DNA of 17,299 bases from Fimbriimonadales bacterium (GTDB lineage: Bacteria > Armatimonadota > Fimbriimonadia > Fimbriimonadales > JABRVX01). The stretch spans positions 1 through 17,299 of the forward strand of contig BTVI01000054.1 of assembly GCA_045862955.1 (NCBI GenBank), read 5' to 3'. Positions 2,186 to 17,299 of this stretch are shown here, piece after piece; position 1 is the stretch's first letter; each line of letters opens with the position of its first letter. The notes beneath the pieces were generated by a model. The model worked only from the letters and a program-made list of their open reading frames with translations, was not told the DNA's origin and did no database searches. The translations under genes were made by a program, and so were the position numbers.

Positions 2186-2282
2186 AAAAGGGCTCCGGCG
2201 CCCCTGAGCGTCGGGCTGCACGTGCGTTGATTAGCCCCACTTTGATTGTCGCTGGATGAGATCAAAAGGAGGGTGGCGACTT

Positions 2283-2822
2283 ATGAGGCGAACCGCCTTC
2301 ATGTCGCTGTTAGCCGCGTCAATTCTCTCGCTCGGCCTGACCAGCCAGGCGCGGGCGCACGATGCGTTCTGGACCGGCTCGTTCTCTTCCACGGGAGAAG
2401 GTGCCGCAGTGTTCCTGGAGCACGAGGACGCTTTTCCGTGGGCGGGCTGGGTCCACGTTACCGTCACGAACGAGAGCGACGTTGCGTGGGGAGATTTTCA
2501 CTTCAAGATCTTCTCCACGGGACAGGATGTCTCGAACGTAGACTGGGTTACGGACCCGCCCTATGAGCCGCAGGGACGGGCGTTCGACTACTGGGTGGTG
2601 GACAACGCGCCGCCGACCGGTGCGACGCTGGACCTGTACTTCTGGAGCGATCCGGTTCTGGTTGGCCAGACCGTTACGATCAGCGTCTACAACGTTAATC
2701 CGGACCACGTGAACTTCGGCGTCTGCTTCTATCCGACGCCGGTTCCGGAGCCTTCGACGCTTGCCGTGTTTGCGAGTGGCTTCGCGGGCCTCGCTGCGCT
2801 CGCCCGCCGTCGGGTGCGCTAG
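2283..2822 (+). CDS. PEP-CTERM sorting-domain surface protein
   Basis: Signal peptide MRRTAFMSLLAASILSLGLTSQARA; C-terminal VPEPSTLAVFASGFAGLAALARRRVR (PEP motif, TM helix, basic tail). ATG at 2283 preceded by AGGAGG is preferred over the ORF-track start at 2256. Confidence 0.92.
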   Translation: MRRTAFMSLLAASILSLGLTSQARAHDAFWTGSFSSTGEGAAVFLEHEDAFPWAGWVHVTVTNESDVAWGDFHFKIFSTGQDVSNVDWVTDPPYEPQGRAFDYWVVDNAPPTGATLDLYFWSDPVLVGQTVTISVYNVNPDHVNFGVCFYPTPVPEPSTLAVFASGFAGLAALARRRVR

Positions 2823-3004: not shown

Positions 3005-4624
3005 GTGTCTCAAACTCCTGGCGGGACCACCGTAGCCCGCGCGTCCGGCATCATGATCGCCGCGATCCTGCTCTCCCGCATCCTCGGCCAAGCGCGAGAG
3101 ACGGTTATCGCGTTCCGGTTCGGACAGGGCGTAGAGGCGGACATGTACCGCGCGGCCTTCTCGGTACCCGACCTCCTCTTCTTCCTCATCGCAGGTGGCG
3201 CCCTTTCGTCCGCATTCATCCCCGTGTTCTCCGAGTACTTCCACACGGACCGCAAGGAAGAGGCGTGGCGGCTCTTCGGCATCATGGCCACGTTCATGGG
3301 TCTGGTGGTCGGCGGCTTCGTAATCCTCACCGAGGTGTTCGCCTTCGAGCTGGTGCGCGTGGTGGCACCCGGCTTCGGCCTGGAGCAAGCAGCTACCACT
3401 GCCTACCTGAGCCGAATCGTCCTACCCGCGCAGTTCGCATTCTTCCTAGGAGGGTTGCTGTTCGCCACCTTCTACGCGCGCAACCACTTCCTAACACCTG
3501 CGCTCGCACCGAATATCTATAACCTAGGCATCATTTGCGGAGCGCTCTTCCTGGTGCCCTTCGTGGAACCGCCCGTGTCTGCGCTCATGTGGGGCGCGCT
3601 CGCAGGGGCGATGGTGGGGAGCCTCATCATACCCGTATGGGTGTTTCGCAGGACCGGTGGCGTGTACAAGCCCGGTCTGGATCTCAAGGACCCGCGCGTG
3701 GTGAAGGTGTTCAAGCTGATGCTCCCCGTGGTGTTAGGTCTGTCGCTGCCGGGAGTGTATGCGTTGCTCGTCCGCGCAATGGCCTCCACCGCCGACCCTG
3801 GCTCTGTAGCAGCGGTCGAGAACGCGAATCGTATCATGCAAGCCCCACTCGGTATCTTCGGTCAGGCGCTCGCACTCGCCGTGTTCCCGAGCCTCTCGCT
3901 GTTCGCAGCGCGCAAGGAGTGGGACAACTTCTCGGCGACACTGCACCGAAGTCTGCGGGTGGTGCTTTTTCTAACTATCCCGGCCTCGGCCCTGCTGCTC
4001 GCCGTACCCGAGGATATCCTGCGCACGCTATTACAATATGGCAAATTCCGCCCGGAAGATACCGTGTACGCAGCGTCTGCGCTACGCCTATTCGCCATCG
4101 GAGTGCCCGCATGGTCGGCTCAGGCGGTGTTGATGCGCGGTTTCTTCTCGCTGCAGGACACACTAACACCTGTCATCCTCGGCACGGTGACCACTGCCAT
4201 CTTCCTACCACTCAGTTGGGCACTCATGCACACCGAGATCGGCTATGCCGGGCTCGCGCTCGGCGTGTCTTTGTCTGCGACGCTATTGTTCGTCCTGATG
4301 CTGGTCGGCATCCGTAGAAAGGTCGGGACCCTGGAGGGACGAAGGCTGGGCGGTCTCCTTGCAGGCTCGCTGGTAGCCGCCACCCTGGCATCCGGGATCG
4401 GGCTAATCCTGGCAGGCTTGGTGCGGACCGCGCTGCTGCACAGCCTGGGACAACCGAACATCGCATCTGCTCTCGCTGCCCTAACCTGCCTGTGCTCCAT
4501 CGCAGTGTTCTACCTGTGGATCGGGAAGCTGCTCGGGCTCGAGGAAACCAAGTACGCGCTCAGCATGGTAGCACGCCGCTTCGGTGCCCGTCCACAGCCC
4601 AACGCGCGCCCGCCCGAGAGCTGA
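3005..4624 (+). CDS. murJ: Lipid II flippase MurJ (MviN family)
   Basis: LLSRILGQARETVIAFRFG, AFSVPDL..GGALSSAFIPVF, ANRIMQAPLGIFG, RGFFSLQDTLTP; many hydrophobic segments over 539 aa. Confidence 0.94.
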   Translation: MSQTPGGTTVARASGIMIAAILLSRILGQARETVIAFRFGQGVEADMYRAAFSVPDLLFFLIAGGALSSAFIPVFSEYFHTDRKEEAWRLFGIMATFMGLVVGGFVILTEVFAFELVRVVAPGFGLEQAATTAYLSRIVLPAQFAFFLGGLLFATFYARNHFLTPALAPNIYNLGIICGALFLVPFVEPPVSALMWGALAGAMVGSLIIPVWVFRRTGGVYKPGLDLKDPRVVKVFKLMLPVVLGLSLPGVYALLVRAMASTADPGSVAAVENANRIMQAPLGIFGQALALAVFPSLSLFAARKEWDNFSATLHRSLRVVLFLTIPASALLLAVPEDILRTLLQYGKFRPEDTVYAASALRLFAIGVPAWSAQAVLMRGFFSLQDTLTPVILGTVTTAIFLPLSWALMHTEIGYAGLALGVSLSATLLFVLMLVGIRRKVGTLEGRRLGGLLAGSLVAATLASGIGLILAGLVRTALLHSLGQPNIASALAALTCLCSIAVFYLWIGKLLGLEETKYALSMVARRFGARPQPNARPPES

Positions 4625-4642
4625 TCTCTCTGTGACACACAC

Positions 4643-4816
4643 TCCGCCAGCCGTCATCGAGGTTAGGTCCTTCCGTCAGCCGACACCGAAGTTAGGTCCT
4701 TCCGCCAGCCGTCATCGAGGTTAGGTCCTTCCGCCAGCCGTCATCGAGGTTAGGTCCTTCCGCCAGCCGACACCGAAGTTAGGTCCTTCCGTTAGTCGGC
4801 ATCGAATTTAGGTCCT
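4643..4816. repeat. Tandem array of 6 x 29 bp (consensus TCCGCCAGCCGTCATCGAGGTTAGGTCCT)
   Basis: Units start at 4643, 4672, 4701, 4730, 4759 and 4788 with no spacers; last unit degenerate. Confidence 0.95.
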
Positions 4817-4820
4817 CGAG

Positions 4821-4870
4821 ATCTCCCTCCCCTTGGAGCGAAGCGGAAGGGGGAGGGTTGGGGTGGGGGT
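4821..4870 (-). repeat. CCC(T/C)CACCCC-type REP-like hairpin, reverse orientation
   Basis: Reverse complement acccccaccccaaccctcccccttccg..ccaaggggagggagat matches the copies at 12237 and 12541. Confidence 0.8.
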
Positions 4871-4886
4871 CACACATACCACACAC

Positions 4887-4916
4887 ATGCCTGCATCCGC
4901 CAGCGGATGCAGGCAT
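4887..4916. repeat. Near-perfect inverted repeat atgcctgcatccgc-ca-gcggatgcaggcat
   Basis: 14-bp arms separated by 2 nt; lies between convergent genes, so may act as a terminator or RNA stabiliser. Confidence 0.75.
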
Positions 4917-4992
4917 CTACCCATCCCTCCCCTCTCGTGGACGATGGGCCACCGGGACGCCACTCCGAGCCTGACATGACGCCGAGCCTCTC

Positions 4993-5729
4993 GTCGTGGC
5001 TGAGCTTGTCGCGATGCCGAGCCTGCCGTCTGCCGGGAACGTCGTGATGCTGAGCGGTACGTCATGCTGAGCCTGTCGAAGCATGGGACCGCCTACCGCA
5101 CGTTTTCGCCTGCACTAGGTGGCTCTGGCACTCACGGATGCATGCTTCGACAGGCTCAGCATGACGGTCCCGGGTGGACTGCAGGCGCTCTATGCCCCGG
5201 CCCGCGTCCGCCGTCTAGCAGCACCGAGGGAATGAAGTAAACCCGAGGACCGCGCCGGGGCAGGGTCGGGGGCGCAAGCGCATGCTTCGACAGGCTCAGC
5301 ATGACGGCGTCCGGGCGCGCCGGGGGATGCAGCCGCCATGCTTCGACAGGCTCAGCATGACGGCGTCCGGGCGCGCCGGGGGATGCAGCCGCCATGCTTC
5401 GACAAGCTCAGCATGACGGCATCTGGGGGCCCGCCGAGGGATGCAGCCGCCATGCTTCGACAAGCTCAGCATGACGATGCAACTGGTTCTGCCTCGTCAC
5501 CCGGACTCTCAGGGCGAGTCACCGACACACCCTGCCTTGGTGCTAGCCCTCACCCCTCTGCGAGAGGGGGGTCACCGGCGACGCCACGCCGGGCCTCTCG
5601 TCATGCCGAACCTGACGTCATGCCGAGAACGTCGTGATGCTGAGCGGTACGTCATCCTGACCCTGACATGACGGCGTCTGGGGCGCGCCGAGGGATGCAG
5701 CCGCCATGCTTCGACAAGCTCAGCATGAC
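4993..5729. repeat. Mosaic cluster of 25-bp REP-like repeats (BIME/REPIN-like)
   Basis: Full copies at 5061-5085 (inverted), 5141-5165, 5281-5305, 5337-5361, 5393-5417, 5451-5475 and 5705-5729, plus degenerate half copies at 4993-5055 and 5600-5662. Confidence 0.92.
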
Positions 5730-5872
5730 GGTTCCGGACAGCAGAAGGCCCTCACTGACCCATCCTCTCGCAGTGACGAGGTTGACAGCATGTAGTAGGC
5801 CAAGTCAACGTCCAGCGTAAGGGCACGCTGGATGTGACATGTCTGGCCGGACGCGGCGCCCTGACCCCACCC

Positions 5873-6601
5873 CTAATGCGGCCCGATCCCCAGCAGCATC
5901 CGGAGCTGCAGCCACTCGATCAGCAGAAAGTACATGCGGTCGATCATCAGGATGAAGCGGTTCATGATGGTCGAGCCGAAGATGGCACCGAACGCGATCA
6001 TCAGCAACCACCTACCCATCTGCGCAGTGCCGCGTATCGCCTTGAACTTCTGCTCGAACGAGAAGAAGAAGTAGGTCAGCACGCAGACGGTGGTAGCAAC
6101 CAAGATCAGGTTGTTGATTGCGGTAGATATGTATACCTGGTTCGGCTCCACCACTTCGGGCTGCACCAGTTGCCAGTGGGTCGGCACTACTGGCACCATG
6201 GAGTCCTGCACCTGAGGCAACCACCGATTGGACCATGCCTTGAACTGCTGACCGGCCCACAACCCGAGAAAGATGCCGATGGGGATGCGACTGAGCCAGC
6301 CGTGCTTGCGGGAGAAGACCGTGAAACCTAACAAGGCCACGGGAACCGGTAGCACCCAGAGGTAGTAGCCCCTGTCGTAGAACGGAATCCACCAGAGCTG
6401 CCGCAGCTCCTCGGTCCAGACGAGCGCGATGACGGTACCGGCACCCAGCCCGAGGAAGATGTGCTCTACCAGCCTATAGAACTTGTTCTCGCGATACAGA
6501 ATGGAGTACAGACCGATCGTGGAGATGGCGCCCGCAGTTACGAACCACCACTCCTTGCTAAACATCTGCTGTAGCTCGATGGCAAGGAAGTTCCCCAGCA
6601 T
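5873..6601 (-). CDS. Polytopic membrane protein of unknown function (last gene of the DUF6754-like operon)
   Basis: 242 aa with ~6 hydrophobic helices; motifs YSILYRENKFYRLVEHIFLG, LTYFFFS, GRWLLMIAFGAIFGSTIMNR; starts 3 nt after the upstream stop. Confidence 0.85.
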   Translation of the reverse strand: MLGNFLAIELQQMFSKEWWFVTAGAISTIGLYSILYRENKFYRLVEHIFLGLGAGTVIALVWTEELRQLWWIPFYDRGYYLWVLPVPVALLGFTVFSRKHGWLSRIPIGIFLGLWAGQQFKAWSNRWLPQVQDSMVPVVPTHWQLVQPEVVEPNQVYISTAINNLILVATTVCVLTYFFFSFEQKFKAIRGTAQMGRWLLMIAFGAIFGSTIMNRFILMIDRMYFLLIEWLQLRMLLGIGPH

Positions 6602-6604
6602 CCT

Positions 6605-7522
6605 CTATGCTCCCCTCGTCTCCGCGCTCTTGCGTGCCATGACCATAGCGACGTTGCCGACGACAATGGCGAGCGTCAGCAAGATCATGGCCGCCGTAAG
6701 CGGTGTCATATACTCCCGACCCAATCCGTAGGCCATCTTGGCAGCATCTTCGCTCGGGCTCAGCTTCGGGTCTTCGGCCATCATCGTCTCGAAATCGTAG
6801 GCCCCGCGCGCTCCGAATGCCACGCCTGCGAGCTGACCGGACTTCTGGTAGGGCAGTGCCTCTGGGAACATGACTCCGGTGCACATCAGTCCCAAGGGAA
6901 CAATCCCGTGCACGCGCTCGACCCACAGTAGGTAGCTGGCCGATGCCGACACGTCCACTACCACGACGAACTCTTTGAGTGACTTTACATCCTTTAGCAT
7001 CTCGGACTTGGTGGCGGGCTGTCCGCGCACCTCGGCCTTGTCCAACGCGCCCTGAATGTTGCTCGTGAGTGACTGGATGTATGCGTCGCCAGCGGGCATG
7101 TAGCCCAGACTGACCCAGTTCTTCCCCTCGATGTAAGGTGGATGGTACTTCTCACGCGCCACCTCGACAAGGGAACTCAGAGCGAAGCCCGCCGCTGCCG
7201 GCTCGGTCAAGGAAATGACTGCAATCCGGTGGTTCTTCCTCATGCACAGCCTGACGAGCGCCTGATACAGTGGCAGGCTCTCGCCTCGCGAGGACATAGT
7301 CCAACCCGAGGAGATGAACACCAGACTCCCGTCCGGCGCGTCGTTGATCAGATCGAACAGCTTCCGAGACTGAGGGAGTGGTTGATTGGGCAGCGACACC
7401 GGATATACGATGAAGATGGACACCACGATGATCAGGATTAGGTAAAGAATCCTCCGATCGATCGTCTGCAGCTTCTCCCACGTCGTCGGTGGATGGGCTT
7501 GGTTTTCGGTCTGCATTTCCAT
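6605..7522 (-). CDS. Membrane-anchored protein of unknown function (N-terminal TM, alpha/beta domain, C-terminal TM)
   Basis: 305 aa; IDRRILYLILIIVVSIFIVYP N-terminal TM, NWVSLGYMPAG motif, C-terminal AAMILLTLAIVVGNVAM TM; 10 nt downstream of the previous stop. Confidence 0.85.
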   Translation of the reverse strand: MEMQTENQAHPPTTWEKLQTIDRRILYLILIIVVSIFIVYPVSLPNQPLPQSRKLFDLINDAPDGSLVFISSGWTMSSRGESLPLYQALVRLCMRKNHRIAVISLTEPAAAGFALSSLVEVAREKYHPPYIEGKNWVSLGYMPAGDAYIQSLTSNIQGALDKAEVRGQPATKSEMLKDVKSLKEFVVVVDVSASASYLLWVERVHGIVPLGLMCTGVMFPEALPYQKSGQLAGVAFGARGAYDFETMMAEDPKLSPSEDAAKMAYGLGREYMTPLTAAMILLTLAIVVGNVAMVMARKSAETRGA

Positions 7523-7532
7523 GCTACACGTC

Positions 7533-8870
7533 CTAGTCGAACAGGGCGCCGCGCTCTAGGTTCAGCCAGATGCGCAACGACATGGCCAAGAGGCCGACAC
7601 CGATTCCGAACTCGACGGCACGCAGTGCCGGAGTGTTGATGACAGTCAGCAACCACTGGGCGACGTTCTCCAAGCGCAAGGAACCTACCAAGGTCTCTGC
7701 AGGGATCCAACTGGTTAGGAACTGGCCGAGTGGCAGCAAGCCGAGAAAAACGATCAGTGCACAAAGCATCAGGATGGAAGCCTCTATCGAGCGCAGTCGG
7801 AACGCGCGATACGCAGCCGACATGATGAAGAACGCAATCATGGAGAACATGGCAGCTTCCATCTGAGCGAACATGTTATCGAACAGTAGCTTGTGTGCAT
7901 CTTGGAAGAACTGTGGCGCCGTGTATGGGTTGTCGGGGCTTCGGTACTCCAGCACCACGACTGCCATGATCGGAATGCACAGCAGCAAGATGAGGCTGAA
8001 CGGCCAGTCCTCGCCGCGTTTTCGTATCCTGCTACCATGGACCCGCAGGAGCGAGTACACCCCCAGTCCAAGCAGCAAACCCGCCATCACGTTCGTCATC
8101 GGAGTAATGGTATCAGTGATGCGCGGCGTCAGGAAGTTCTGGCCCTCGGGATATCCGAACGTGCCGGTCGGGAAGAAGAACTCCGTAGCCCAGAACAGTC
8201 CTGCAAGGAACACACACGTCGCGATGATCCAACGGCGGAGGCGAGTTCCGACACGGGCTAACCCCAGGATGAGGATCAGGGAAACGATGAGAATGCCGAT
8301 AACGGCCGCCCACCAGTACCCACCATGGAGAATGAAGCCGTTCACGAAGGTGACATGCACGCGATATGCCTGGCTCGCTTGCCATGACTCCACGATCGCA
8401 TCGATCGCTTCGGCTGGCGTGAGGCCGGCAACACGCACCGGCCCCACCTGCGGGACCTCCAGTACTCCGTCGAGTCTGATCAGTCTCGTGTACTGCTGAT
8501 CACCTATGAAAACCTGTACGTCTCCGTTAGAAACGATCCGCCCTTCGTTGTCCAGTCGTAGGCCTTCTAGTCGGAACTCCGGTTGCTCGGCGTACTTCCG
8601 TTGTTTACCGAGCTCGGCGAGCATCTCGGCCGCTTCGGACGGCTTCTTGTCGGCAAGCCGCTGCCTTCCGAATGGTGGAACATCAACGGTACCGTCCTGG
8701 GCCACGGTGTACTGTGCAACCTTGCCCTCGACGTTGATGTACAGCTTATCGCCTACACGGATCGTCGGCTCCTCCTCGGGGCCCTGAGCGTAGGCAGCCG
8801 AAAAGAGGCCTAGGATCGACAGACCGAGTGCGGCAGCGAGAAAGCGGGGGAAAACCACTTTGCACCTCAT
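7533..8870 (-). CDS. Signal peptide + two Wza-type polysaccharide-export N-terminal domains fused to a polytopic membrane domain
   Basis: IRVGDKLYINV..VAQDGTVDVPPFGRQRLADKKPSEAAEML and IRLDGVLEVPQVGPVRVAGLTPAEAIDAI resemble the Poly_export pattern; C-terminal half has ~7 TM with SAAYRAFR; the ATG directly abuts the upstream TAG. Confidence 0.82.
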   Translation of the reverse strand: MRCKVVFPRFLAAALGLSILGLFSAAYAQGPEEEPTIRVGDKLYINVEGKVAQYTVAQDGTVDVPPFGRQRLADKKPSEAAEMLAELGKQRKYAEQPEFRLEGLRLDNEGRIVSNGDVQVFIGDQQYTRLIRLDGVLEVPQVGPVRVAGLTPAEAIDAIVESWQASQAYRVHVTFVNGFILHGGYWWAAVIGILIVSLILILGLARVGTRLRRWIIATCVFLAGLFWATEFFFPTGTFGYPEGQNFLTPRITDTITPMTNVMAGLLLGLGVYSLLRVHGSRIRKRGEDWPFSLILLLCIPIMAVVVLEYRSPDNPYTAPQFFQDAHKLLFDNMFAQMEAAMFSMIAFFIMSAAYRAFRLRSIEASILMLCALIVFLGLLPLGQFLTSWIPAETLVGSLRLENVAQWLLTVINTPALRAVEFGIGVGLLAMSLRIWLNLERGALFD

Positions 8871-9722
8871 CTAGGAACCACCCGGTAGTGGAACATTGGG
8901 TGGCTGGGGCTTCGAGAAGAGCGCGTCCCAGCCTCCCGGGCCATACAGCCCTTTGAACTTCATTAGCTCTTCGTTTCCGCCGGCGACGGCGATGGAGACG
9001 AATACGACGCCGAGCAGAATGCTTAGCAGGATGAGCCCCTTGCACAGGTCCTGTCCCACGATGCTTCCCATCAGCACCGGCTCTCGCGAGAGAAACGCAC
9101 TGCCTGCGTAGAACTCGTCGCCAATAATCACATAGTCGCAAGCGGCAACGAAGAATGGTGTCTGCGTCGTTTGGGTAGAGCCTGCCACCTGAATCGCGCC
9201 GACGATGTTGCCCGATTCGGCCAGGATCAGAGACTCGGCAAAGAACTCTCCCAACAAGAAGGCCGCGGCGACTCGCTCGCGCTGGATGAGGCCCGCCACA
9301 CCGGCTGCGAACGCGAACTGCTGAGCAGCGATAAATCGAACCGAATCGGGATCGTATGCTTCCGACCGGTCCTCTTCGCGATACGCATCCTGCACGATCT
9401 CTTGCGCTACGGCGTACACGGCCGCATCGATGCAGGTTAGTCGAATCGGGTTCCCGTAGCGCGCCGCCGTCTTCGTGATGTAGGCGAAGATCTGGAGTGC
9501 CTGAACCGAGATGATGTTCAGGCCACCGATGCCCGGAACCATGAGAATGGGTCGTCCCATCTCCAGGGCGCGCCCCACGGCTTCATCAATGGCCGTCAGG
9601 CCCGCAATCCGACGGATGTAAAGCTGCTTGCCTCGCTTGGCCATCATGATGGCCGAAAGAATAAAGATGGCGAACAGCCCGTACAGGATGACGATGAACC
9701 AGTTCTGATCAGCGTGTTGCAT
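8871..9722 (-). CDS. DUF6754-like membrane protein
   Basis: N-terminal TM then YIRRIAGLTAIDEAVGRALEMGRPIL, QQFAFAAG, GEFFAESLILAE, PFFVAACDYVIIGDEFYAGSAFLSREP and a C-terminal TM; family recalled from these motifs, not searched. Confidence 0.8.
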   Translation of the reverse strand: MQHADQNWFIVILYGLFAIFILSAIMMAKRGKQLYIRRIAGLTAIDEAVGRALEMGRPILMVPGIGGLNIISVQALQIFAYITKTAARYGNPIRLTCIDAAVYAVAQEIVQDAYREEDRSEAYDPDSVRFIAAQQFAFAAGVAGLIQRERVAAAFLLGEFFAESLILAESGNIVGAIQVAGSTQTTQTPFFVAACDYVIIGDEFYAGSAFLSREPVLMGSIVGQDLCKGLILLSILLGVVFVSIAVAGGNEELMKFKGLYGPGGWDALFSKPQPPNVPLPGGS

Positions 9723-10029
9723 TCGCTGTGTCCCTTTCTGGGTCCCTCTTCGCAGCGGCGCCCTCTTCGAGCCTCCGGATCAGGCGCTCGATGTTGCCTC
9801 GGTCTTCGAAGAACTGCGTGTAGTTATCGAAGGCGACCATGCCGCTAAAGGGGATGACGAACGGGGAGACGACGATCGCGGCGTTCGCGGCCACTCGGGC
9901 GATGGGCTTGTGCATCTCCAACCAAAGGATGGCCGGGACAGTAAGCCCCCAGCGCTCCACCTTAGAGGCGAGCAGTTCTGTTATTCTGTCCTTGTCTTCT
10001 TCGGAGAGCGGCTCATCCCAAAGTCGCAT
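9709..10029 (-). CDS. Small hypothetical protein, probably membrane-associated
   Basis: 106 aa with WGLTVPAILWLEMHKP and EDRGNIERLIRRLE; overlaps both neighbours (14 and 17 nt), implying translational coupling. Confidence 0.8.
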   Translation of the reverse strand: MRLWDEPLSEEDKDRITELLASKVERWGLTVPAILWLEMHKPIARVAANAAIVVSPFVIPFSGMVAFDNYTQFFEDRGNIERLIRRLEEGAAAKRDPERDTANATR

Positions 10030-10444
10030 CGTTCCGATACCAATACCCCACAGCCTGCTCCACTTCCTGCTTCCGTTCGCCGAATCGAAGATAAACGCCG
10101 CGGAAGGCCTCGAGTCGACTCGGCTTCTCGAGAGGCGACAGCTTCACTCCATGCGCATCGCTCTTGACCCGCTTCACGTCCTTCCAAGCAATGTGGGTCA
10201 CGTTGATGCCCCACCGGGCGCTTGCACCCTCCTCCGTGATGCGGTACCGAACCGGCAGAAGGAACTCCGACGTCGCACCGAGCACCACCGCAGGCCCGAT
10301 GATCGCCAGCGCAACCGAACCGGCCACGAAGAACCCCACTAGCCCGGCGAACAACGCCGCGACCAGCACGGCAGCTACCTTCTCCGGCTGCTGTGAGGCA
10401 AGCGAAACCGTCCACTCCATCACCGGCGGCGGCTCCTCTGGCAT
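10013..10444 (-). CDS. Two-TM protein with a C-terminal PH-like soluble domain, function unknown
   Basis: Two hydrophobic helices then LPVRYRITEEG..IAWKDVKRV..GVKLSP..SRLEAFRGVYL; start uncertain (10486 in the ORF track, 10444 has GGAGAG upstream). Confidence 0.78.
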   Translation of the reverse strand: MPEEPPPVMEWTVSLASQQPEKVAAVLVAALFAGLVGFFVAGSVALAIIGPAVVLGATSEFLLPVRYRITEEGASARWGINVTHIAWKDVKRVKSDAHGVKLSPLEKPSRLEAFRGVYLRFGERKQEVEQAVGYWYRNDATLG

Positions 10445-10525
10445 TCGGCTCTCCGACTGACCTACAATCTCGCTAGACGTCTGCATGGTGGGGGATGTCA
10501 GACTCTCTTAGGAGGATTCGTTCCG

Positions 10526-11785
10526 ATGCTGATTCCACTTCTCGTTGCGGCATTCCTTGTCTCGGCCAACAGCGGCTCCTCGGTGACCGTCGAGATGAAC
10601 CCCATGCTCGAGGGAGTGCAGAAGGAACGGAGACAAGGCAAGCCCCAGGGGATCCTCCTCGGCGACCCTCCGAGCTTCCTTCGCAGACCCATCGCGGGAA
10701 CCGTCAAGTACGGAATCCTGCACTTCGACGGCGACGAGTTCCTGCTCGCGGTCTCGATGGAACGCCCCGAGGACTGGACGATCTACCTGGACCTGGACAA
10801 GAACGGAGAGTTCTCGGAAGGAGAAAAGCTGGCCACCACGCGTGCGCAGTCTAAAGCGGTGGGTACGGACGGAAAACCGTTCGACCTGTTCACGGTCGTT
10901 GCGCAAACGACGATCCACCGCACCCAAGACGACCGGAGGATGGCCTATCCCTTGACCCTCGCCATCGCTCAGCCCGCGCCGACCTCCCCGGCCCCGAAGG
11001 ACACCCTCATCGTTGTTCGCGACTATGCTCGCTCCGGCAAGGCCAAGATAGGCCAACGCGAGTACCAGCTCGTGCTCGACGACCCGGGAGTAAACGGCCA
11101 CTTCACGCTCGGTGGCAACACCGCCGCGGGTCTGGAACTGCTGATTGACTTAGACGGAGACGGGCACTTCAACCCGTTTTTCGAAAAGCTGCCTCTGGAC
11201 GGGGCCTTCCGGCTGGACGGGTCGGCCTATCGCGTCACGAGCGTCAACCGCTCGGGGACACGCATGGTGATCGAGAGCGGCCATGCGGCCGCGGCAACCG
11301 AAGACAGCCCCAGCTTCTGGGGGACTGCCAAAGGCGACAAGATCGCGCCGTTCGAAGCGCCGCTGCTCGACGGCAAGACGCTCAAGTTTCCGGACGACGT
11401 GAAGGGCAAGAAAGTGCTCTTCATCACCTGGTCCACCCTGCGCCAAGACTGCCCTTCCATCATGCGGCAACTTTCGGCTATGCAGGATCGCCTGGCCGAC
11501 AAAGGCTTGCGGGTCATCGGCATCAATCTGGACGAGAAGGAGCGGAGGGACGCGGCGAAGCGAATGCTCCCGGTGACCCTACCTAATGCTCCCCACATCT
11601 TCGAGGGCTCCGGCCTGTCTGGGCCCATCGCAAAACGCCTGGGTGTGACACATGCACCCGCGACACTCCTGGTAGACGGAGATACCGGCACGGTGCTCGT
11701 CCCCTTCCACGAGGCAGAATGGGCGAAGGCAAACGAATGGCTGTCGAAGGCGCTCGGCCTCGAGACGAAGGGTCAGGGGAAGTAG
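10526..11785 (+). CDS. Secreted protein with DxDxDG-type motifs and a C-terminal TlpA/redoxin-like thioredoxin fold
   Basis: AGGAGG SD at 10510; hydrophobic signal peptide; DLDKNGEF and DLDGDGHF; C-terminal GDKIAPFEAPLLDGK..KGKKVLFITWSTLRQDC..GLRVIGINLD..GVTHAPATLLVDG. Confidence 0.85.
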   Translation: MLIPLLVAAFLVSANSGSSVTVEMNPMLEGVQKERRQGKPQGILLGDPPSFLRRPIAGTVKYGILHFDGDEFLLAVSMERPEDWTIYLDLDKNGEFSEGEKLATTRAQSKAVGTDGKPFDLFTVVAQTTIHRTQDDRRMAYPLTLAIAQPAPTSPAPKDTLIVVRDYARSGKAKIGQREYQLVLDDPGVNGHFTLGGNTAAGLELLIDLDGDGHFNPFFEKLPLDGAFRLDGSAYRVTSVNRSGTRMVIESGHAAAATEDSPSFWGTAKGDKIAPFEAPLLDGKTLKFPDDVKGKKVLFITWSTLRQDCPSIMRQLSAMQDRLADKGLRVIGINLDEKERRDAAKRMLPVTLPNAPHIFEGSGLSGPIAKRLGVTHAPATLLVDGDTGTVLVPFHEAEWAKANEWLSKALGLETKGQGK

Positions 11786-11889
11786 GCTAGCTCCGAGCGG
11801 AGGCCACCACCAGCGGCGCTCTCCATCCTCCAGCCCGGTCTCCGGGTTCAAAGTTACTCCGCGACTGCGAGACAACAGACGACCATCCC

Positions 11890-12618
11890 ATGCCCCGCCC
11901 CGCGTCCACCGCGTCCATGCCTAGACGTTTCGGCTGCCGTCTGCCACCACGCTCTCGCCCAGCGACCGCCCGAGCAGCCGAACGTCGAGGCACCCGGCGC
12001 CAACGGCTCCATGCCTAGACGCTCAGCATGACGCGGCAGAGGGCATGTTGTATTCCCTCACCACTTGCAAAGGATGGGTGACTAGCGACGTCATGCTGAG
12101 CCTGTCGAAGCATGGGACCGCCGACCGCACGCCCCCGCCTAGACGTTTCGGCTGCCGTCTGCCACCACGCTCTCGCCCAGGGACCCCCCGAGCAGCCGAA
12201 CGTCGAGGCACCAGAGGTCCGTGCATGGTGATAGCACCCTCACCCCAGCCCTCTCCCTCTAAAGAGGGAGAGGGAGGGAGACACTACCCCGCGTTGCCCC
12301 GGCCCGCGTGCGCCGCTTGGCAGCAGCGAGTGCATGCCTCGACAAGCTCAGCATGACGTGACAAAGGGCATGCTCACATCCCTCACTTCACGTCGAAGCA
12401 TGGGACCGCCGGCCGCACGTCCCCGCCTAGACGTTTCCATGCCTAGACGTTTCGGCTGCCGTCTGCCACCACGCTCTCGCCCAGCGAGCCCCCGAGCACC
12501 CGAACGTCGAGGCACCGAAAGCCAGGGGCTGGTGATGCCCCCCTCACCCCAGCCCTCTCCCCCGCGAACGGGGGAGAGGGAGGGAGACACTACCCCGCGT
12601 TGCCCTGGCCCGCGTTCG
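11890..12618. repeat. Composite repeat tract: three ~75-nt hairpin modules, two CCCTCACCCC hairpins, two full and two partial 25-bp REPs
   Basis: Hairpin modules at 11918-11992, 12137-12210 and 12440-12514; CCCTCACCCC modules at 12237 and 12541; REPs at 12090-12114 (inverted) and 12333-12357, with fragments at 12022-12032 and 12392-12402. Confidence 0.92.
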
Positions 12619-12644: not shown

Positions 12645-13529
12645 CTAAACGGTTGCCTTCTCGGGTGCTCCCAAATACTCGCCGGACAGGATCTTCTGGT
12701 ACTCCCCGCCCTCGAACCACTGCTCCAGCTGCTGCGCGCGGAAGATCGGCTGCGGATGCGTGTAGGTCGCGGTGCGCAGCAGGAAGACGATCACCTTCGC
12801 CAGCTTCTCCAGCGCACCAGCCTCTTGATACATCCTCGCCTGGGTCATGAACTCGTCCATGTTCATCTCGTCCGCAAAGCGGCTCTTCCCACCCGCCAAG
12901 ACCATGATAGTCTCCACCGCACCCTGCTTGTCTTGCAGAGTGAGCAGTCCACCGCGATCGCACGTCAGTTCCGCCTGTCGCATCCACTCATAGAAGGCCA
13001 GCACCAGACCGATGGACACCGCATCGCCGAGCCGCAGCGTCATGCGACCCAGCGCATCGAGTAGGGGCAGAATCCACCGCGCGACGGTCATGTACAGAAC
13101 GTGTCCGGCCTTGATGTGCGCCAGCTCGTGGCCCATCAGGTACAGGATCTGCTCGTCCGTGAGCGCGTCCAGCAGCGTGCTGTGAACGGTGATGAACGGC
13201 CGCTCCACGCCGAACGTATACGCGTTCGGCCACGGGTTGAACTTGATGTACAGCTCGGGCTCGGGAACGTCCAGAATGGCGCACGCCTCGCGCATGATGG
13301 CGTAGGGGGTCTTGAACTGGTTGGGTCCGCAGCGGACAGACTCCGCCATGTTCAGCGAGTAGGCCCAGCGGTCTATCCCCAGGTCGTAGAACTTGCGGAC
13401 TACTTGGGGAAGGATGGGCACCTTTCGGAGTGCGTCCAGTGCGAGTTTGTCCGTCTCAGCGGTGAAAGCGTCGGGGTGCATCCCCGGGAATCTCTTACGT
13501 TCGGTCTCGAAAAGCTTGGTCTCGGCCAT
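12645..13529 (-). CDS. M48 family (HtpX/Ste24-like) zinc metallopeptidase
   Basis: PELYIKFNPWPNAYTFG, GHELAHIK (HExxH), RQAELTCDR, THP. ATG at 13529 with AGGGGG upstream is preferred to 13550. Confidence 0.92.
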   Translation of the reverse strand: MAETKLFETERKRFPGMHPDAFTAETDKLALDALRKVPILPQVVRKFYDLGIDRWAYSLNMAESVRCGPNQFKTPYAIMREACAILDVPEPELYIKFNPWPNAYTFGVERPFITVHSTLLDALTDEQILYLMGHELAHIKAGHVLYMTVARWILPLLDALGRMTLRLGDAVSIGLVLAFYEWMRQAELTCDRGGLLTLQDKQGAVETIMVLAGGKSRFADEMNMDEFMTQARMYQEAGALEKLAKVIVFLLRTATYTHPQPIFRAQQLEQWFEGGEYQKILSGEYLGAPEKATV

Positions 13530-13597
13530 AGCGTCCCCCTGTTGCGGCACGTTCCGATGTTCCTACCGCCGCCGGCCGGATTCGGTTGCACCCGCGC

Positions 13598-14569
13598 TCA
13601 GAACGGCGGCGAGAGAACCCCTCGCTCGGTAATGAACCCGGTAATCATGCCGGCAGGCGTCACGTCGAAAGCCGGGTTGTACACCTCGGCTCCCTCGGGC
13701 GCCATCTGCTGTCCGCCCAGCGCGGTGATCTCCTCGGGCCCCCTTTCCTCTATCGGAATCCCGTTCCCGTCGGGCACAGCGGGGTCGAAGGTGCTCAGCG
13801 GCGCGGCCACGTAGAACGGCACCGAGTGCGCCCGGCACAGCACGGCTAGCGAGTAGGTACCCACCTTGTTCGCGGTGTCGCCGTTCTTCGCAATCCGGTC
13901 CGCGCCGACAATGGCGACGTCCACGAGCCTCTGGCGCATCAGCAGGCCCGCCATCCCGTCGGTGACGATCCGGAATGGAATACCGAGGCGCTGTAGCTCC
14001 CACGCAGTCAGCCGCATCCCCTGCAGCCTCGGCCTCGTCTCCAGCACCCACACGAAGGGCCTCTTGCCCTCTGCGAAAGCCGCACGCACCACACCCAGCG
14101 CCGTGCCGTAGCCGCCGGTTGCCAGCGCCCCGGTGTTACAGATAGTTATCACCCGCGCGCGATTGGGAAGCAATTCTGCCCCGCAGCGCGAGAGCGCCCG
14201 GTCCGCATCTACCACTTCCGCGTGGATGGCTCGGGCTGTCTGGAGCAGTTCCATTCCGGCGGAGGCGGCCGCACGCATCCGTTCTACCGCCCAGGGCAGG
14301 TTCACAGCCGTAGGTCGCGCCGTAGCGATGGCCACACAAGCGCGCTCCCACTCGTCTGACCGGGGCACATACTCGCGAGCGGCCAGCAGGACCGCGTACG
14401 CTCCCGCCACGCCGATTGCCGGCGCCCCACGCACCACCATCTCCCGTATTGCCTGAACAGCCTGCCGCCAGTCGGCGCACACCACGTACTCCTCGCGCTG
14501 TGGCAGCAAGCGCTGGTCGAGCAAGACCAAGGCATCGCCTCGCCACTCGATGGGTCGGATTTCGCTCAC
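13598..14569 (-). CDS. mtnA: S-methyl-5-thioribose-1-phosphate isomerase
   Basis: LLDQRLLP, MVVRGAPAIG, RPTAVNL, TICNTGALATGGYGTALG, ETRPRLQG, GADRIAKNGDTANKVGTY, NPAFDVTP. Confidence 0.96.
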   Translation of the reverse strand: MSEIRPIEWRGDALVLLDQRLLPQREEYVVCADWRQAVQAIREMVVRGAPAIGVAGAYAVLLAAREYVPRSDEWERACVAIATARPTAVNLPWAVERMRAAASAGMELLQTARAIHAEVVDADRALSRCGAELLPNRARVITICNTGALATGGYGTALGVVRAAFAEGKRPFVWVLETRPRLQGMRLTAWELQRLGIPFRIVTDGMAGLLMRQRLVDVAIVGADRIAKNGDTANKVGTYSLAVLCRAHSVPFYVAAPLSTFDPAVPDGNGIPIEERGPEEITALGGQQMAPEGAEVYNPAFDVTPAGMITGFITERGVLSPPF

Positions 14570-14572
14570 GAC

Positions 14573-15031
14573 CTACAAGTTCGAGAGCGCTTCCTTTACC
14601 TCTTGCACGTGGCCGGGCACCTTGACCTTACGGAACTCGGCCCTTACTACGCCTTTGCCATCCAGCACGAAGGTGGAGCGCTCGATGCCCATGTACTTCT
14701 TGCCGTACATGCTCTTTTCCACCCAGACGCCGTAGCTCTCAGCGGCCTTGTGGTCCGGGTCCGAAGCCAGAGTGAAGTTGAGGCCGTGCTTCTTCGCGAA
14801 CTTCTCGTGCGAAGCTAGGCTGTCCGGGCTGACTCCCACGACTTTCACGCCGAGCTTCTCGAAGTCCGGCATCGCATCGCGGAAGTCGCACGCCTCCTGC
14901 GTGCATCCCGACGTGTCATCCTTGGGATAGAAGTACAGAACCAACGGCGCGCCCGCGAAGTCCTTCAGTGTCACCGTACCCTGCTGGGTTTCGAGCGCGA
15001 AGTCGGGTGCTTTGCTGCCTTGTCGAACCAA
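14573..15031 (-). CDS. bcp: Peroxiredoxin, BCP/PrxQ subfamily
   Basis: YFYPKDDTSGCTQEACDFRD (peroxidatic and resolving Cys in CxxxxC), GVSPDS, YGVWVEKSMYGKKYMGIERSTF; TTG start with GAGGAGG SD. Confidence 0.95.
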   Translation of the reverse strand: MVRQGSKAPDFALETQQGTVTLKDFAGAPLVLYFYPKDDTSGCTQEACDFRDAMPDFEKLGVKVVGVSPDSLASHEKFAKKHGLNFTLASDPDHKAAESYGVWVEKSMYGKKYMGIERSTFVLDGKGVVRAEFRKVKVPGHVQEVKEALSNL

Positions 15032-16359
15032 TCTCTCGCCTCCTCGTCACGATAAAGCCAACGCACGGTTTCGTCTTGCAGCCGTCTGGCTGCAGCCGTA
15101 TCGGCGTGGTTGACCACTATGCAGAACGCCGCCACCCGCCCCGACTTCGTCCAAACGTAGCCGCTGAGCGAGCTCGCACCGTCCATGGTCCCGGTCTTGG
15201 CGCGAACGCGGCCGGCCAGATCGGTGAGGCGCTTTGCTACCGTCCCTTCCTTGCCTGCGAGCGGGATCGACTCTCGGAAGGCTTCCCCCCAGGGCTGCCT
15301 CACGGCGTGATGTAGCAGCGCCACCATGCTCCGCGCGGTTAGCCGGTTCAACCGCGAAAGGCCCGAGCCGTCCACCACGCGAAACGTTCCGGGTTCCGGG
15401 CCGACGTTTCTCCCGAACGCTTCGACCGCCCGAGCCCCGGTGACGAAGGTGCCGGTGCCGGTTGCCGCGTAGCCAATCTCGAGGAACAGCATCTCCGCGA
15501 CGAAGTTATCGCTGGGTTTGTTGACAACTTGGACAATCTCGTACAGCGGCTTCCCCTCGTGCACGACCTCGGCCATACCGTTCGGCTTCGGGTTCACGGT
15601 GGGCACGCGGACAAGAGCCGACCGGAGCCAGTGCGTGGCCCATGCAGGCGGGTCGGCAATCGAGAGCGCCTGCACCGGCTTCTCGGCCAAGTGGTCGGCG
15701 GCGACTACACCGCGCACCACGTACTCGTCCCGCCACGGCTCGCGGGCAACCCGCAGCGGCCCATCACCCCCATCCACCCGTACCGACCCGAACTCGGGCA
15801 CCACGGTGGCAGTCGGGGGATCGCCGGATTGGACGAACACTTCCACCGTGTTCCGACTCACCGCGAGCGCCGAAAGAGTCGGCAGGTAGTAGTAGCCGAG
15901 GTCGTCGAGCTGCCAGCCGGGGGCGAACGCCTCGCCGCCGTACCGCGAGAGCTCGAGTGCGATGTCCAGTCCATCCGGCATCCCCGCTTCGCGGAGCCGC
16001 GCCACCATCGCTTCGAGGTCCGCGATGCCGAGAAGCGGATCGCCGCCCCCGACCGCGGTCAGCGTGCCTTTCCCAGCGGACCACTCTGCACGCAGCACGG
16101 TCCGGTGGCGGTACTCCGGCCCGAGCAGATCCAACGCGGCGGCCGTCGTCAGCAGCTTCATACCGGATGCCGGAACGAGCAGCAGATCCGGGTTGTGTGC
16201 AAGCAACGGCTGCCCGCCGGTTACATAGGCCGCGTAGACGCCGATGGTCGCGTGGCGCAGCCCCGGCTCCTGCGCGATCCGGGCGAGGCCGGGCGGCAGA
16301 TCGGCCCACGCCACGACCGCGAGCCCGACGAGCAAGCAAGCGAGAGGAAGACGCTGCAT
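14971..16359 (-). CDS. dacB: D-alanyl-D-alanine carboxypeptidase/endopeptidase (PBP4, peptidase S13)
   Basis: Signal peptide; PASGMKLLT (SxxK), GGGDP, KPSDNFVAE (SxN), DGSGLSRLN, KTGT, SLSGYV. Confidence 0.94.
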   Translation of the reverse strand: MQRLPLACLLVGLAVVAWADLPPGLARIAQEPGLRHATIGVYAAYVTGGQPLLAHNPDLLLVPASGMKLLTTAAALDLLGPEYRHRTVLRAEWSAGKGTLTAVGGGDPLLGIADLEAMVARLREAGMPDGLDIALELSRYGGEAFAPGWQLDDLGYYYLPTLSALAVSRNTVEVFVQSGDPPTATVVPEFGSVRVDGGDGPLRVAREPWRDEYVVRGVVAADHLAEKPVQALSIADPPAWATHWLRSALVRVPTVNPKPNGMAEVVHEGKPLYEIVQVVNKPSDNFVAEMLFLEIGYAATGTGTFVTGARAVEAFGRNVGPEPGTFRVVDGSGLSRLNRLTARSMVALLHHAVRQPWGEAFRESIPLAGKEGTVAKRLTDLAGRVRAKTGTMDGASSLSGYVWTKSGRVAAFCIVVNHADTAAARRLQDETVRWLYRDEEARDWFDKAAKHPTSRSKPSRVR

Positions 16360-16482
16360 GTCTTCCCGTTCTGTGCGAGCGCTATACTTCCCCCGTGAGC
16401 GTGGGTGTGATCTGGAACCGCGCGGCGCGGCGTGCTCGGTACTGCTGGCCTTCAGCGGGAGGCAAGCACCAGGTCTAGACGC

Positions 16483-17299
16483 CTAGTCCTTCACCTTGTC
16501 CTTCCAGTACTGGATTAGCTCTTCGGAAGGATAGCTGCCGGAGCCCAGTTTGTCCATGGTCCAGTCCTTGTCCGGCTCGCGGTAGATCATAGAGAGAATC
16601 CGGAGCGCCTCCAGCCTGACGCCCTCCCATTCGTGGTCGAGGAGCGCGGCGACCTGTTTCGCATACTTCTTGCCTTCGTCCGGCCGAAACGGGTTCATCA
16701 GCGCCTTCTGGACGATGAGTGGGTCCCGGTGCGAGTACAACGAGACTGCGGCTTCTCTCCCGTTGGGTAAAAGGCCCAGCCCGCCGACAATCTCGGCGAC
16801 GTGCTCGCGCAGTTTCTCCGATTTGCTCGTGTCCAGCGCGAGCACCACATCGGCGATCTGTTTCGCGGCATCGGGGTCTCCGTAGGTACCTGCAATCACG
16901 TGGCGCAGGATGATCTGTAGCTCGGTCGTCTTCGGCCCGGTCGGGGGTAGGTTGGGAGCTATCTCCTCTCGGTAGAACTTCAGGGGGTCAGGGCCGAACT
17001 GGTTTGCCACCTTCCGATCGCGATCGCTCACGTAGGGTCTGGAGAGCGAGTAGTCGAAGTTGGCCTCTGTGGGCCACAGGCTGACCCGGACCAGGCCGTG
17101 TTCCTCTGACAATCCGCGGTAATCGTCAACTGGAAGGCCTTCGGTTGCGCGCACCCATACGCGCATCATGTCTTTGCCGGGGGAGTCGTGCTTCAGCGGG
17201 AACTTCTCCGGCGCCGAGTCGGGGATGATGTAAGAGTGCCACCTCTCATGAAAATCCGTGACCGCATAGCGAACGCCCTCCGGTAGCCTTACGAAGTCG
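16483..17299 (-). CDS. Hypothetical protein with a C-terminal HEAT-like helical region, 5' end outside the window
   Basis: The frame of the 16483..17169 ORF stays open to the window edge (..DFVRLPEGVRYAVTDFHERWHSYIIPDSAPEKFPLKHDSPGKD-MMRV..); ALLDHEWEGVRLEALRILSMI resembles a HEAT repeat. Confidence 0.7.
   Translation of the reverse strand, partial: DFVRLPEGVRYAVTDFHERWHSYIIPDSAPEKFPLKHDSPGKDMMRVWVRATEGLPVDDYRGLSEEHGLVRVSLWPTEANFDYSLSRPYVSDRDRKVANQFGPDPLKFYREEIAPNLPPTGPKTTELQIILRHVIAGTYGDPDAAKQIADVVLALDTSKSEKLREHVAEIVGGLGLLPNGREAAVSLYSHRDPLIVQKALMNPFRPDEGKKYAKQVAALLDHEWEGVRLEALRILSMIYREPDKDWTMDKLGSGSYPSEELIQYWKDKVKD

Follow-up and report, generated by a model that had tools for sequence, protein, structure and literature searches.

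A Fimbriimonadales membrane gene block and its GlmL-like ATPase partners as a candidate ATP-coupled system

ATPases of the GlmL/MutL group (PF13941, TIGR01319, NF040745 and NF040744) are accessory proteins that serve glutamate mutase and Or-4, and GlmL is assumed to act like the reactivases of B12-dependent dehydratases. In such reactivases, among them those of glycerol and diol dehydratases, an ATP-driven subunit swap releases the bound cofactor (PMC7674605), and a three-gene glutamate mutase is named in Dictyoglomus (PMC5167688). In ECF and ABC importers one energiser serves several membrane modules and the outer subunit varies, and RnfA and RnfE are two oppositely oriented six-helix membrane subunits. 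Here we describe a gene system that recalls each of these in part and whose membrane genes lie in a 17,299-nucleotide stretch of a Fimbriimonadales genome (phylum Armatimonadota; contig BTVI01000054.1), referred to in full as the window. On sequence evidence, the six genes that we call A to F make up the membrane half of a conserved system of eight genes (A-B-G-H-C-D-E-F); its ATPase gene G and partner gene H lie on other contigs of the same genome. The system is widespread and undescribed, and it is most likely ATP-coupled.

The product of G is homologous to the GlmL/MutL ATPases and its ATP-binding motifs are intact; unlike them, it scores below the curated cut-offs, occurs paired with or fused to H, and is accompanied by membrane genes instead of a mutase. 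ECF and ABC importers are alike only in how they work: a pattern scan of the six A-F proteins detected no Walker A motif in any of them, as an earlier note on this DNA had claimed, the co-occurring ATPase is of the actin/Hsp70 (ASKHA) class, and no permease, S-component or binding-protein family was matched above cut-off by the proteins of the window. To our knowledge, no solute transporter is energised by an ATPase of the actin/Hsp70 fold. Our literature search returned no paper that mentions DUF6754 or PF13941 and no description of the system, within a scope that left out most subscription journals and the supplements, so that a mention by locus tag could be missed.

A conserved membrane gene set and its ATPase pair

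The earlier note had proposed an operon of six membrane proteins, and its six same-strand open reading frames (ORFs; Table 1), with junctions of -17, -14, 0, +10 and +3 nucleotides from A-B through to E-F, were borne out by our ORF check; GC content at third codon positions in these frames ranges from 0.72 to 0.84, and a GGAG-type site precedes the internal ATG of gene A. What it had called a DUF6754-like component is gene C, a full member of PF20539 (E 1.9e-89; 299.6 bits against a gathering cut-off of 27, profile positions 11-251 of 257), a family to which no function is assigned, and the motifs that it listed (AVGRAxEMGRP, SAAYRAFR, DRRxxxL and ENxFYxxxEH) are present in C, D, E and F and conserved in their alignments. 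A, B, E and F match no Pfam or NCBIfam model above cut-off. The statement that all six proteins are hydrophobic holds for B only at the borderline (peak 1.73; 21 of 45 homologues reach 1.6), and the PH-like label given to A traces to a single weak bPH_6 match in one homologue (E 0.001, below cut-off).

The gene set is kept together across many phyla. In our GTDB set (the 80 best loci, with room taken as at least 3 kb and a distance of up to 4.5 kb downstream allowed), C is followed by D, E and F in 69/69 loci with room, among them 40/40 that are not labelled Armatimonadota; for metagenome contigs with room the figure is 41/42. Locus titles include Zixibacteria, Cloacimonadia, Eisenbacteria, Fermentibacteria and Riflebacteria as well as Planctomycetota, Symbiobacterium, Terriglobia and Ignavibacteriaceae, Bathyarchaeota is the commonest phylum of one Atlas cluster of E, and relatives of F fill 2907 clusters at 50% identity. 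A search for DUF6754 was positive for 131 of the 151 own-phylum genomes and negative for all 14 control (model) genomes; the 20 negatives of the own phylum fall in six families, and since 14 of them belong to one family and are all those searched there, few independent losses need be assumed. The system reaches 33 of 121 genomes in a second phylum and 5 of 151 in a third, a patchy spread that fits an accessory function, and no relatives were found among the viral contigs searched. Five loci, from chromosome-level or large-contig assemblies, contain what look like frameshifts in G, D, E or C, probably sequencing errors.

Clustering of the neighbours of these loci yielded two further recurring genes, G (about 605 residues) and H (about 375 residues), and a G homologue matches PF13941 ('MutL', GlmL-like) with E 3e-129. 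The commonest full order outside the own phylum is A-B-G-H-C-D-E-F, with C-D-E-F-B-G-H and A-B-C-D-E-F-G-H as variants. Among loci with room not labelled Armatimonadota, 21 of 42 hold G or H, and in the own phylum G lies within 5 kb of C in at least 12 of 60 DUF6754-positive genomes. The source genome has one A, one B, one G (contig C6) and one H (contig C5), and C, D, E and F are each present twice. Its second module is broken at the D/E boundary: the second C-D copy, whose D carries a soluble insert of about 340 residues with no Pfam match, is on contig C12 (L083 8128-10628), and the second E-F copy is on contig C8 (L084 8478-10249), 70 nucleotides upstream of a secA-like gene. Another split form, with G-H-C or H-C together and D-E-F elsewhere, appears at four loci.

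G and C occur together almost invariably. We searched 80 own-phylum genomes for G and H, comprising every one of the 20 DUF6754-negative genomes and 60 out of the 131 positives. G was found in 60/60 and H in 59/60 of the C-positive genomes, and both were missing from 18 of the 20 C-negative ones, the two exceptions being genomes of 92-93% completeness. In the second phylum 31 genomes have C and G, 2 have C only and 88 have neither, and in the third the identical 5 genomes hold both, so that the 352 genomes of the three phyla divide into 96 with both genes, 252 with neither and 4 with one only. Further C-bearing genomes gave a G match in 50 of 51 cases, two of these being of a divergent type or a fragment. 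G and H are also fused to each other, in an Atlas cluster of 92 members and in several of the loci that we fetched.

Three motifs of G, D13-G15-S-T-T-T-K20, D295-I-G-G-A-T-T-D302 and S430-G-G, which we take to be the phosphate-1, phosphate-2 and adenosine motifs of ASKHA proteins, are invariant in 18/18 sequences. The protein scores 225 against a cut-off of 475 with NF040745 (E 1.4e-66), 175 against 204 with TIGR01319 and 212 against 600 with NF040744, and it has an extra C-terminal region and is longer than GlmL by about 140 residues. We infer that G and H are physically linked to the membrane genes. Because both are operonic with these genes in many lineages, the motifs of G are intact and G tracks C, the earlier suggestion of an 'ATPase-independent' transporter is unlikely; of the six-gene unit, the conserved C-D-E-F core stands, and the conserved unit is C-D-E-F plus G and H, with A and B loosely attached.

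H gives weak matches to barrel-sandwich domains of the RnfC/NqrA type. In the copy at L086 6505-7734, an aromatic, glycine-rich loop occupies the hairpin tip at which lipoyl carriers have their lysine, the H alignment contains no invariant lysine at that tip, and a long invariant stretch spans residues 279-290; from its pattern and one Atlas cluster name, H may also have a swivel-like middle and a KOW-like C-terminus.

Fifteen loci hold divergent G-H pairs and fusions of 850-980 residues with no C-D-E-F, at 37-47% identity to G, in host genomes that mostly also carry the standard set. One genome (G162) has four full-length copies of G, two as a tandem pair that follows A-C-D-E-F and one immediately downstream of a gene pair that we take to be ETF-like (electron-transfer flavoprotein).

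Predicted folds and membrane orientation

C and E appear to share one design. C comprises a helix at residues 8-29, a Rossmann-like alpha/beta domain at about 40-212 and a second helix at 215-248, and in the predicted models of both C (predicted local distance difference test, pLDDT, 93.9; predicted template modelling score, pTM, 0.86) and E (pLDDT 95.9, pTM 0.91) the elements follow in the same order, namely a membrane helix, a helix, six strand-helix units and a membrane helix. By sequence comparison C is the most conserved membrane subunit, with 27 invariant alignment columns; E has three invariant residues only. Lysine and arginine are commoner after than before helix 1 of C in 74 of 77 homologues, and in E they are commoner before helix 1 (77 of 80) and after helix 2 (70 of 80). 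Because this charge bias points two ways, the domain of C is predicted to be cytoplasmic and that of E to face outward, on opposite sides of the membrane; N-terminal extensions of outer type on some C homologues, one with an fn3 domain, agree with the orientation of C.

Structure matches of both domains are generic, with 330 chains at Z 8 or above for C and identities of 6-15%. The chain 1kjn_B aligns with C at Z 10.2 (root-mean-square deviation, rmsd, 3.4; 134 residues aligned) and with E at Z 9.5 (rmsd 3.2, 138 aligned), the sirtuin 3u31_A aligns with both, and transhydrogenase domain III (4j16_C) aligns with C at Z 9.8 (rmsd 3.2, 137 aligned) and with E at Z 7.5 (rmsd 4.1, 150 aligned), in each case over the whole domain. 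The RCK proteins KtrC (Z 10.2, rmsd 2.6, 115 aligned) and MthK (Z 9.8, rmsd 3.3, 117 aligned) match C as well. Transhydrogenase- and RCK-type matches (Z 9.3-10.2 for C, 7.3-8.0 for E) are level with many unrelated Rossmann chains, and the likeness to transhydrogenase domain III, sirtuins and RCK domains (Z 7.5-10.8) is that of a general Rossmann fold, tied with unrelated folds. Foldseek searches with the two models returned nothing at E 0.001, and PDB sequence searches with C, D, E, F, G and H returned nothing significant; in keeping with the novelty that the earlier note had proposed, no already characterised complex was matched by sequence or by fold. The closest relatives of C are records labelled Armatimonadota, and the source names returned for relatives of E all read 'hypothetical protein'.

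D begins with a signal-peptide-like N-terminus and two Poly_export stretches (PF02563, E 1.3e-17), predicted to be periplasmic, so that the Wza-domain/polytopic fusion noted earlier is confirmed. The same fusion recurs in three other long D relatives and is therefore real but lineage-specific; no second Poly_export copy was found in the source genome, and in D relatives from the GTDB loci only the membrane part of D was matched, among the matches listed. Unlike in Wza/OPX proteins, the domain is fused to an inner-membrane polytopic core in these four proteins, no polysaccharide cluster recurs nearby, and the EpsE-type NCBIfam models score far below cut-off. The idea of a polymer exporter leans on this domain, an add-on of this D and three relatives. 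In other lineages C, D or F bears outer domains unrelated to it, including large inserts in D and F.

The membrane core of D (7536-8345 in the window; alignment of 77 sequences) has about six helices, preceded here by one extra helix. Lysine and arginine counts alternate across its loops (2.3, 1.1, 4.3, 1.8, 3.1, 0.9 and 2.1), from which both termini of the core are predicted to be inside. F (alignment of 75 sequences) is predicted to have an outer N-terminus and 6-7 helices, and D and F would thus be six-helix cores of opposite orientation. No family match was obtained for the core of D; scans of the 77 D and 75 F homologues gave scattered weak matches, with at most 8 members per family, and the alignments of D, E and F contain no invariant cysteine or histidine. 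E is fused to F in five of the 15 long F relatives, and in 5/5 the linker holds one extra hydrophobic helix, as the predicted topology of E and F requires. The five may represent one lineage, and as natural fusions they support a shared complex.

The common fold of C and E and their opposite orientation suggest that C-D and E-F may have arisen by inverted duplication. Profile comparison gave no sequence kinship for C-E or D-F (hhalign probability at most 1.5%), scores from trimmed alignments and from deeper ones (168/232 and 159/297 sequences) fell within those of column-shuffled controls, and the case for duplication therefore comes from fold and topology only. Neither D nor F showed significant internal repeats. 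The one PDB match of the D profile, to RnfE at E 0.21, prompted a comparison of D and F with RnfA and RnfE: although the pair echoes those two six-helix subunits, hhalign gave 0.1-1.5%, against 99.9% for the RnfA-RnfE control.

Median identity across loci is 62% for G, 54% for C, 50% for H, 43% for F, 42% for D and 35% for E, a fall that runs from the inside to the outside of the predicted complex; for B and A it is 28% and 26%. Between paralogues of one locus or genome, identity is 46-64% for C and 25-44% for E, which on this comparison is the most divergent core subunit and a candidate for ligand capture. B homologues are present in 47 of 82 loci, and the gene after B is C in 58, G in 26 and another in 2 of 86 cases; as it directly precedes either C or the ATPase gene, B may be an adaptor. 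A, with homologues in 36 of 82 loci, has hydrophobic residues at about 34-73 followed by a short soluble C-terminal domain, and is likely an accessory protein with two membrane helices.

What the system may do

We consider it probable, from the gene order, co-occurrence and fusions described above, that C, D, E and F form one complex working with G and H. As to its task, we tentatively favour an importer of new architecture that uses ATP to bring in a small solute or cofactor. E would capture the ligand outside, D and F would form the passage through the membrane, C would receive the ligand on the inner side, and G-H would use ATP to pry the bound ligand from C, as the related reactivase-type ATPases do for B12 enzymes, with A and B as accessory parts. 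Several C-D-E-F modules that differ in specificity would share one G-H pair, and the source genome would then hold two modules, one G and one H. A single G accompanies two or three modules in eight genomes, including the source genome, and at seven loci C-D-E-F modules stand in tandem and share a single G; other genomes have two to four copies of G. An importer would be consistent with such a shared inner energiser and with the pairing of a conserved inner and a variable outer domain. Somewhat more tentatively, the system may represent a new class of primary active transporter, in which an ASKHA pair drives a pseudo-symmetric C-D/E-F heterotetramer that arose by an ancient inverted duplication, Rossmann domains cap both faces as ligand-binding sites, and one ATPase serves interchangeable modules in many uncultured phyla.

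Several observations weigh against an importer. Sequence searches with all subunits detected no likeness to a known permease or binding protein, and the folds matched are generic ones, dozens of Rossmann folds being tied. As the genomes compared are related, the co-occurrence counts exaggerate how many independent events lie behind them. The copies of G equal or exceed the number of modules in five genomes, and detached G-H pairs occur away from C-D-E-F, so that G-H may have other clients. The divergence of E is weak evidence of specificity, because rapid evolution of outer domains is common to most membrane complexes. No riboswitch was found in eight stretches, the window and seven other loci. 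The neighbouring genes are mixed and point to no substrate: our main neighbour scan covered 71 of 97 candidates, after removal of 37 near-redundant or short loci, further neighbours were scanned separately, and the genes recovered were of amino-acid or peptide type (gcvP, lysine aminotransferase, PepQ, M28 peptidase and 2-oxoacid oxidoreductase) along with prs, glmU, recO, zwf, pgi, metK, tatD and V-ATPase genes. In the second phylum, 5/5 genomes with C and G that were chosen as anammox look-alikes gave hydrazine-synthase-alpha matches of 809-826 residues, a family also matched in one control genome; if these five are anammox autotrophs, a role in peptide uptake would be less likely than one that involves a cofactor, an ion or the envelope.

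An envelope export or modification machine is an unlikely alternative, in which G-H would use ATP to activate or deliver a substrate, C, D and F would pass it outward, and E would hand it on to a polymer, lipid or protein at the surface, much as in Dlt-like logic. The outer add-ons are of envelope type (Poly_export on D, fn3 on C, the large inserts of D and F), retention of the system in the five anammox-type genomes suits a general cell function, and G is highly conserved, at 55-70% identity across phyla. Yet the add-ons vary by lineage and are missing in many, the genes that recur next to the block include none for a glycosyltransferase, flippase or acyl carrier, invariant residues number only three in E, H lacks an invariant lysine at the tip of its hairpin, and tandem modules with one ATPase fit uptake better.

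We regard as less likely again a transmembrane sensor or gated channel, with E sensing, D and F relaying the signal or conducting ions, and C with G-H acting as a nucleotide-dependent, RCK-like switch. A variable outer and a conserved inner domain would suit receptors equally, and the equally ranked fold matches of C include the RCK domains of KtrC and MthK; these do not rise above other Rossmann folds, however, C has no TrkA_N match in Pfam, and no conserved regulator, kinase or cyclase lies nearby.

It is improbable that the genes encode an ion-coupled redox or energy-converting complex of transhydrogenase-like or Rnf/Nqr-like design, running independently of ATP hydrolysis with G-H as assembly or repair factors. 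That C and E both align with transhydrogenase domain III, that H resembles the RnfC/NqrA barrel-sandwich domain weakly and that RnfE is the sole PDB match of the D profile speak for such a complex; the profile comparison with RnfA and RnfE, set against its control, and the lack of invariant cysteine or histidine in D, E and F speak against it, and of 36 genomes that carry the system only 20 gave an Rnf/Nqr match, while the source genome gave none.

More improbable still is a membrane-anchored actin-like scaffold for cell shape or an appendage, in which G would polymerise or dock, as FtsA, MreB and PilM do. G does carry actin/Hsp70-family motifs and is usually single-copy, and one homologue weakly matches a model of an actin-like morphology protein (E 0.08), but G is far nearer to GlmL (E 1e-66) than to the actins of the cytoskeleton, genes for division or pili do not recur in the neighbourhood, and searches for the system came up empty in 20 of the 151 genomes of the own phylum, among them every one of the 14 searched from one family.

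Finally, the proposal that G is an ordinary B12-mutase reactivase linked to the membrane genes by chance is largely refuted and very improbable: against the PF13941 and NF040745 matches stand scores below all three curated cut-offs, the added length, the tracking of C over three phyla and the failure to find glutamate mutase E (PF06368) in the 97.6% complete source genome, in a search whose control matched in one genome, and there only below cut-off. Lysine aminomutase (PF09043) gave no match in the source genome, nor did its control.

Genomic setting and significance

Table 1. Features of the window, with coordinates, strand and annotation
Feature	Position	Strand	Annotation
Gene A	10013-10486	-	157-residue ORF; alternative start ATG at 10444 gives 143 residues
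Gene B	9709-10029	-	106-residue ORF
Gene C	8871-9722	-	283 residues, DUF6754 (PF20539)
Gene D	7533-8870	-	445 residues, add-on domains and membrane core of about six helices
First Poly_export (Wza N-terminal type) domain of D	8574-8777	-	PF02563, 64.2 bits against 28, residues 32-99
Gene E	6605-7522	-	305 residues, helix / Rossmann-like alpha/beta / helix
Gene F	5873-6601	-	242 residues, membrane protein of 6-7 helices
Divergent gene	10526-11785	+	419 residues, exported-looking, C-terminal thioredoxin-like (AhpC/TSA, TlpA-type) domain
PEP-CTERM protein	2256-2822	+	family match
MurJ flippase	3005-4624	+	family match
Five-gene run	12645-17169	-	includes M48 peptidase (family match) and 228-residue HEAT-like protein

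The surroundings of the block are summarised in Table 1. The PEP-CTERM and MurJ genes, together with genes at 238-1976 that we take to be glyA-like and rpiB-like, are not conserved neighbours of the system. The thioredoxin-like domain of the divergent gene lacks the first cysteine of the usual CxxC, and the five-gene run presumably continues after its M48 peptidase with mtnA-like, Bcp peroxiredoxin-like and DacB-like genes. A 29-nucleotide tandem repeat (4643-4816) lies within an intergenic array at 4614-5760, and an element of about 26 nucleotides occurs in both orientations, in at least six copies to the left of the operon and more to its right (11886-12588). These arrays look like repetitive extragenic palindromic (REP) elements, and an ORF at L083 6459-7406 is possibly a REP-associated tyrosine transposase, as we take it. 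A promoter scan of the window found none, terminator-like sites were no commoner than chance, and four runs of expression data gave scattered short contig pieces across the whole window.

The genome from which the window comes shows the dispersed form of the system, with the ATPase pair off-site. Carriers make up 131 of the 151 sampled genomes of its own phylum and about a quarter of those in the second, and include many candidate phyla; as the system was found in none of the 14 model genomes, it has remained unstudied. Since G is labelled as a glutamate-mutase helper, this mislabel can mislead metabolic reconstructions of such organisms. Whatever its cargo, the system is a large conserved machine with a concrete parts list.

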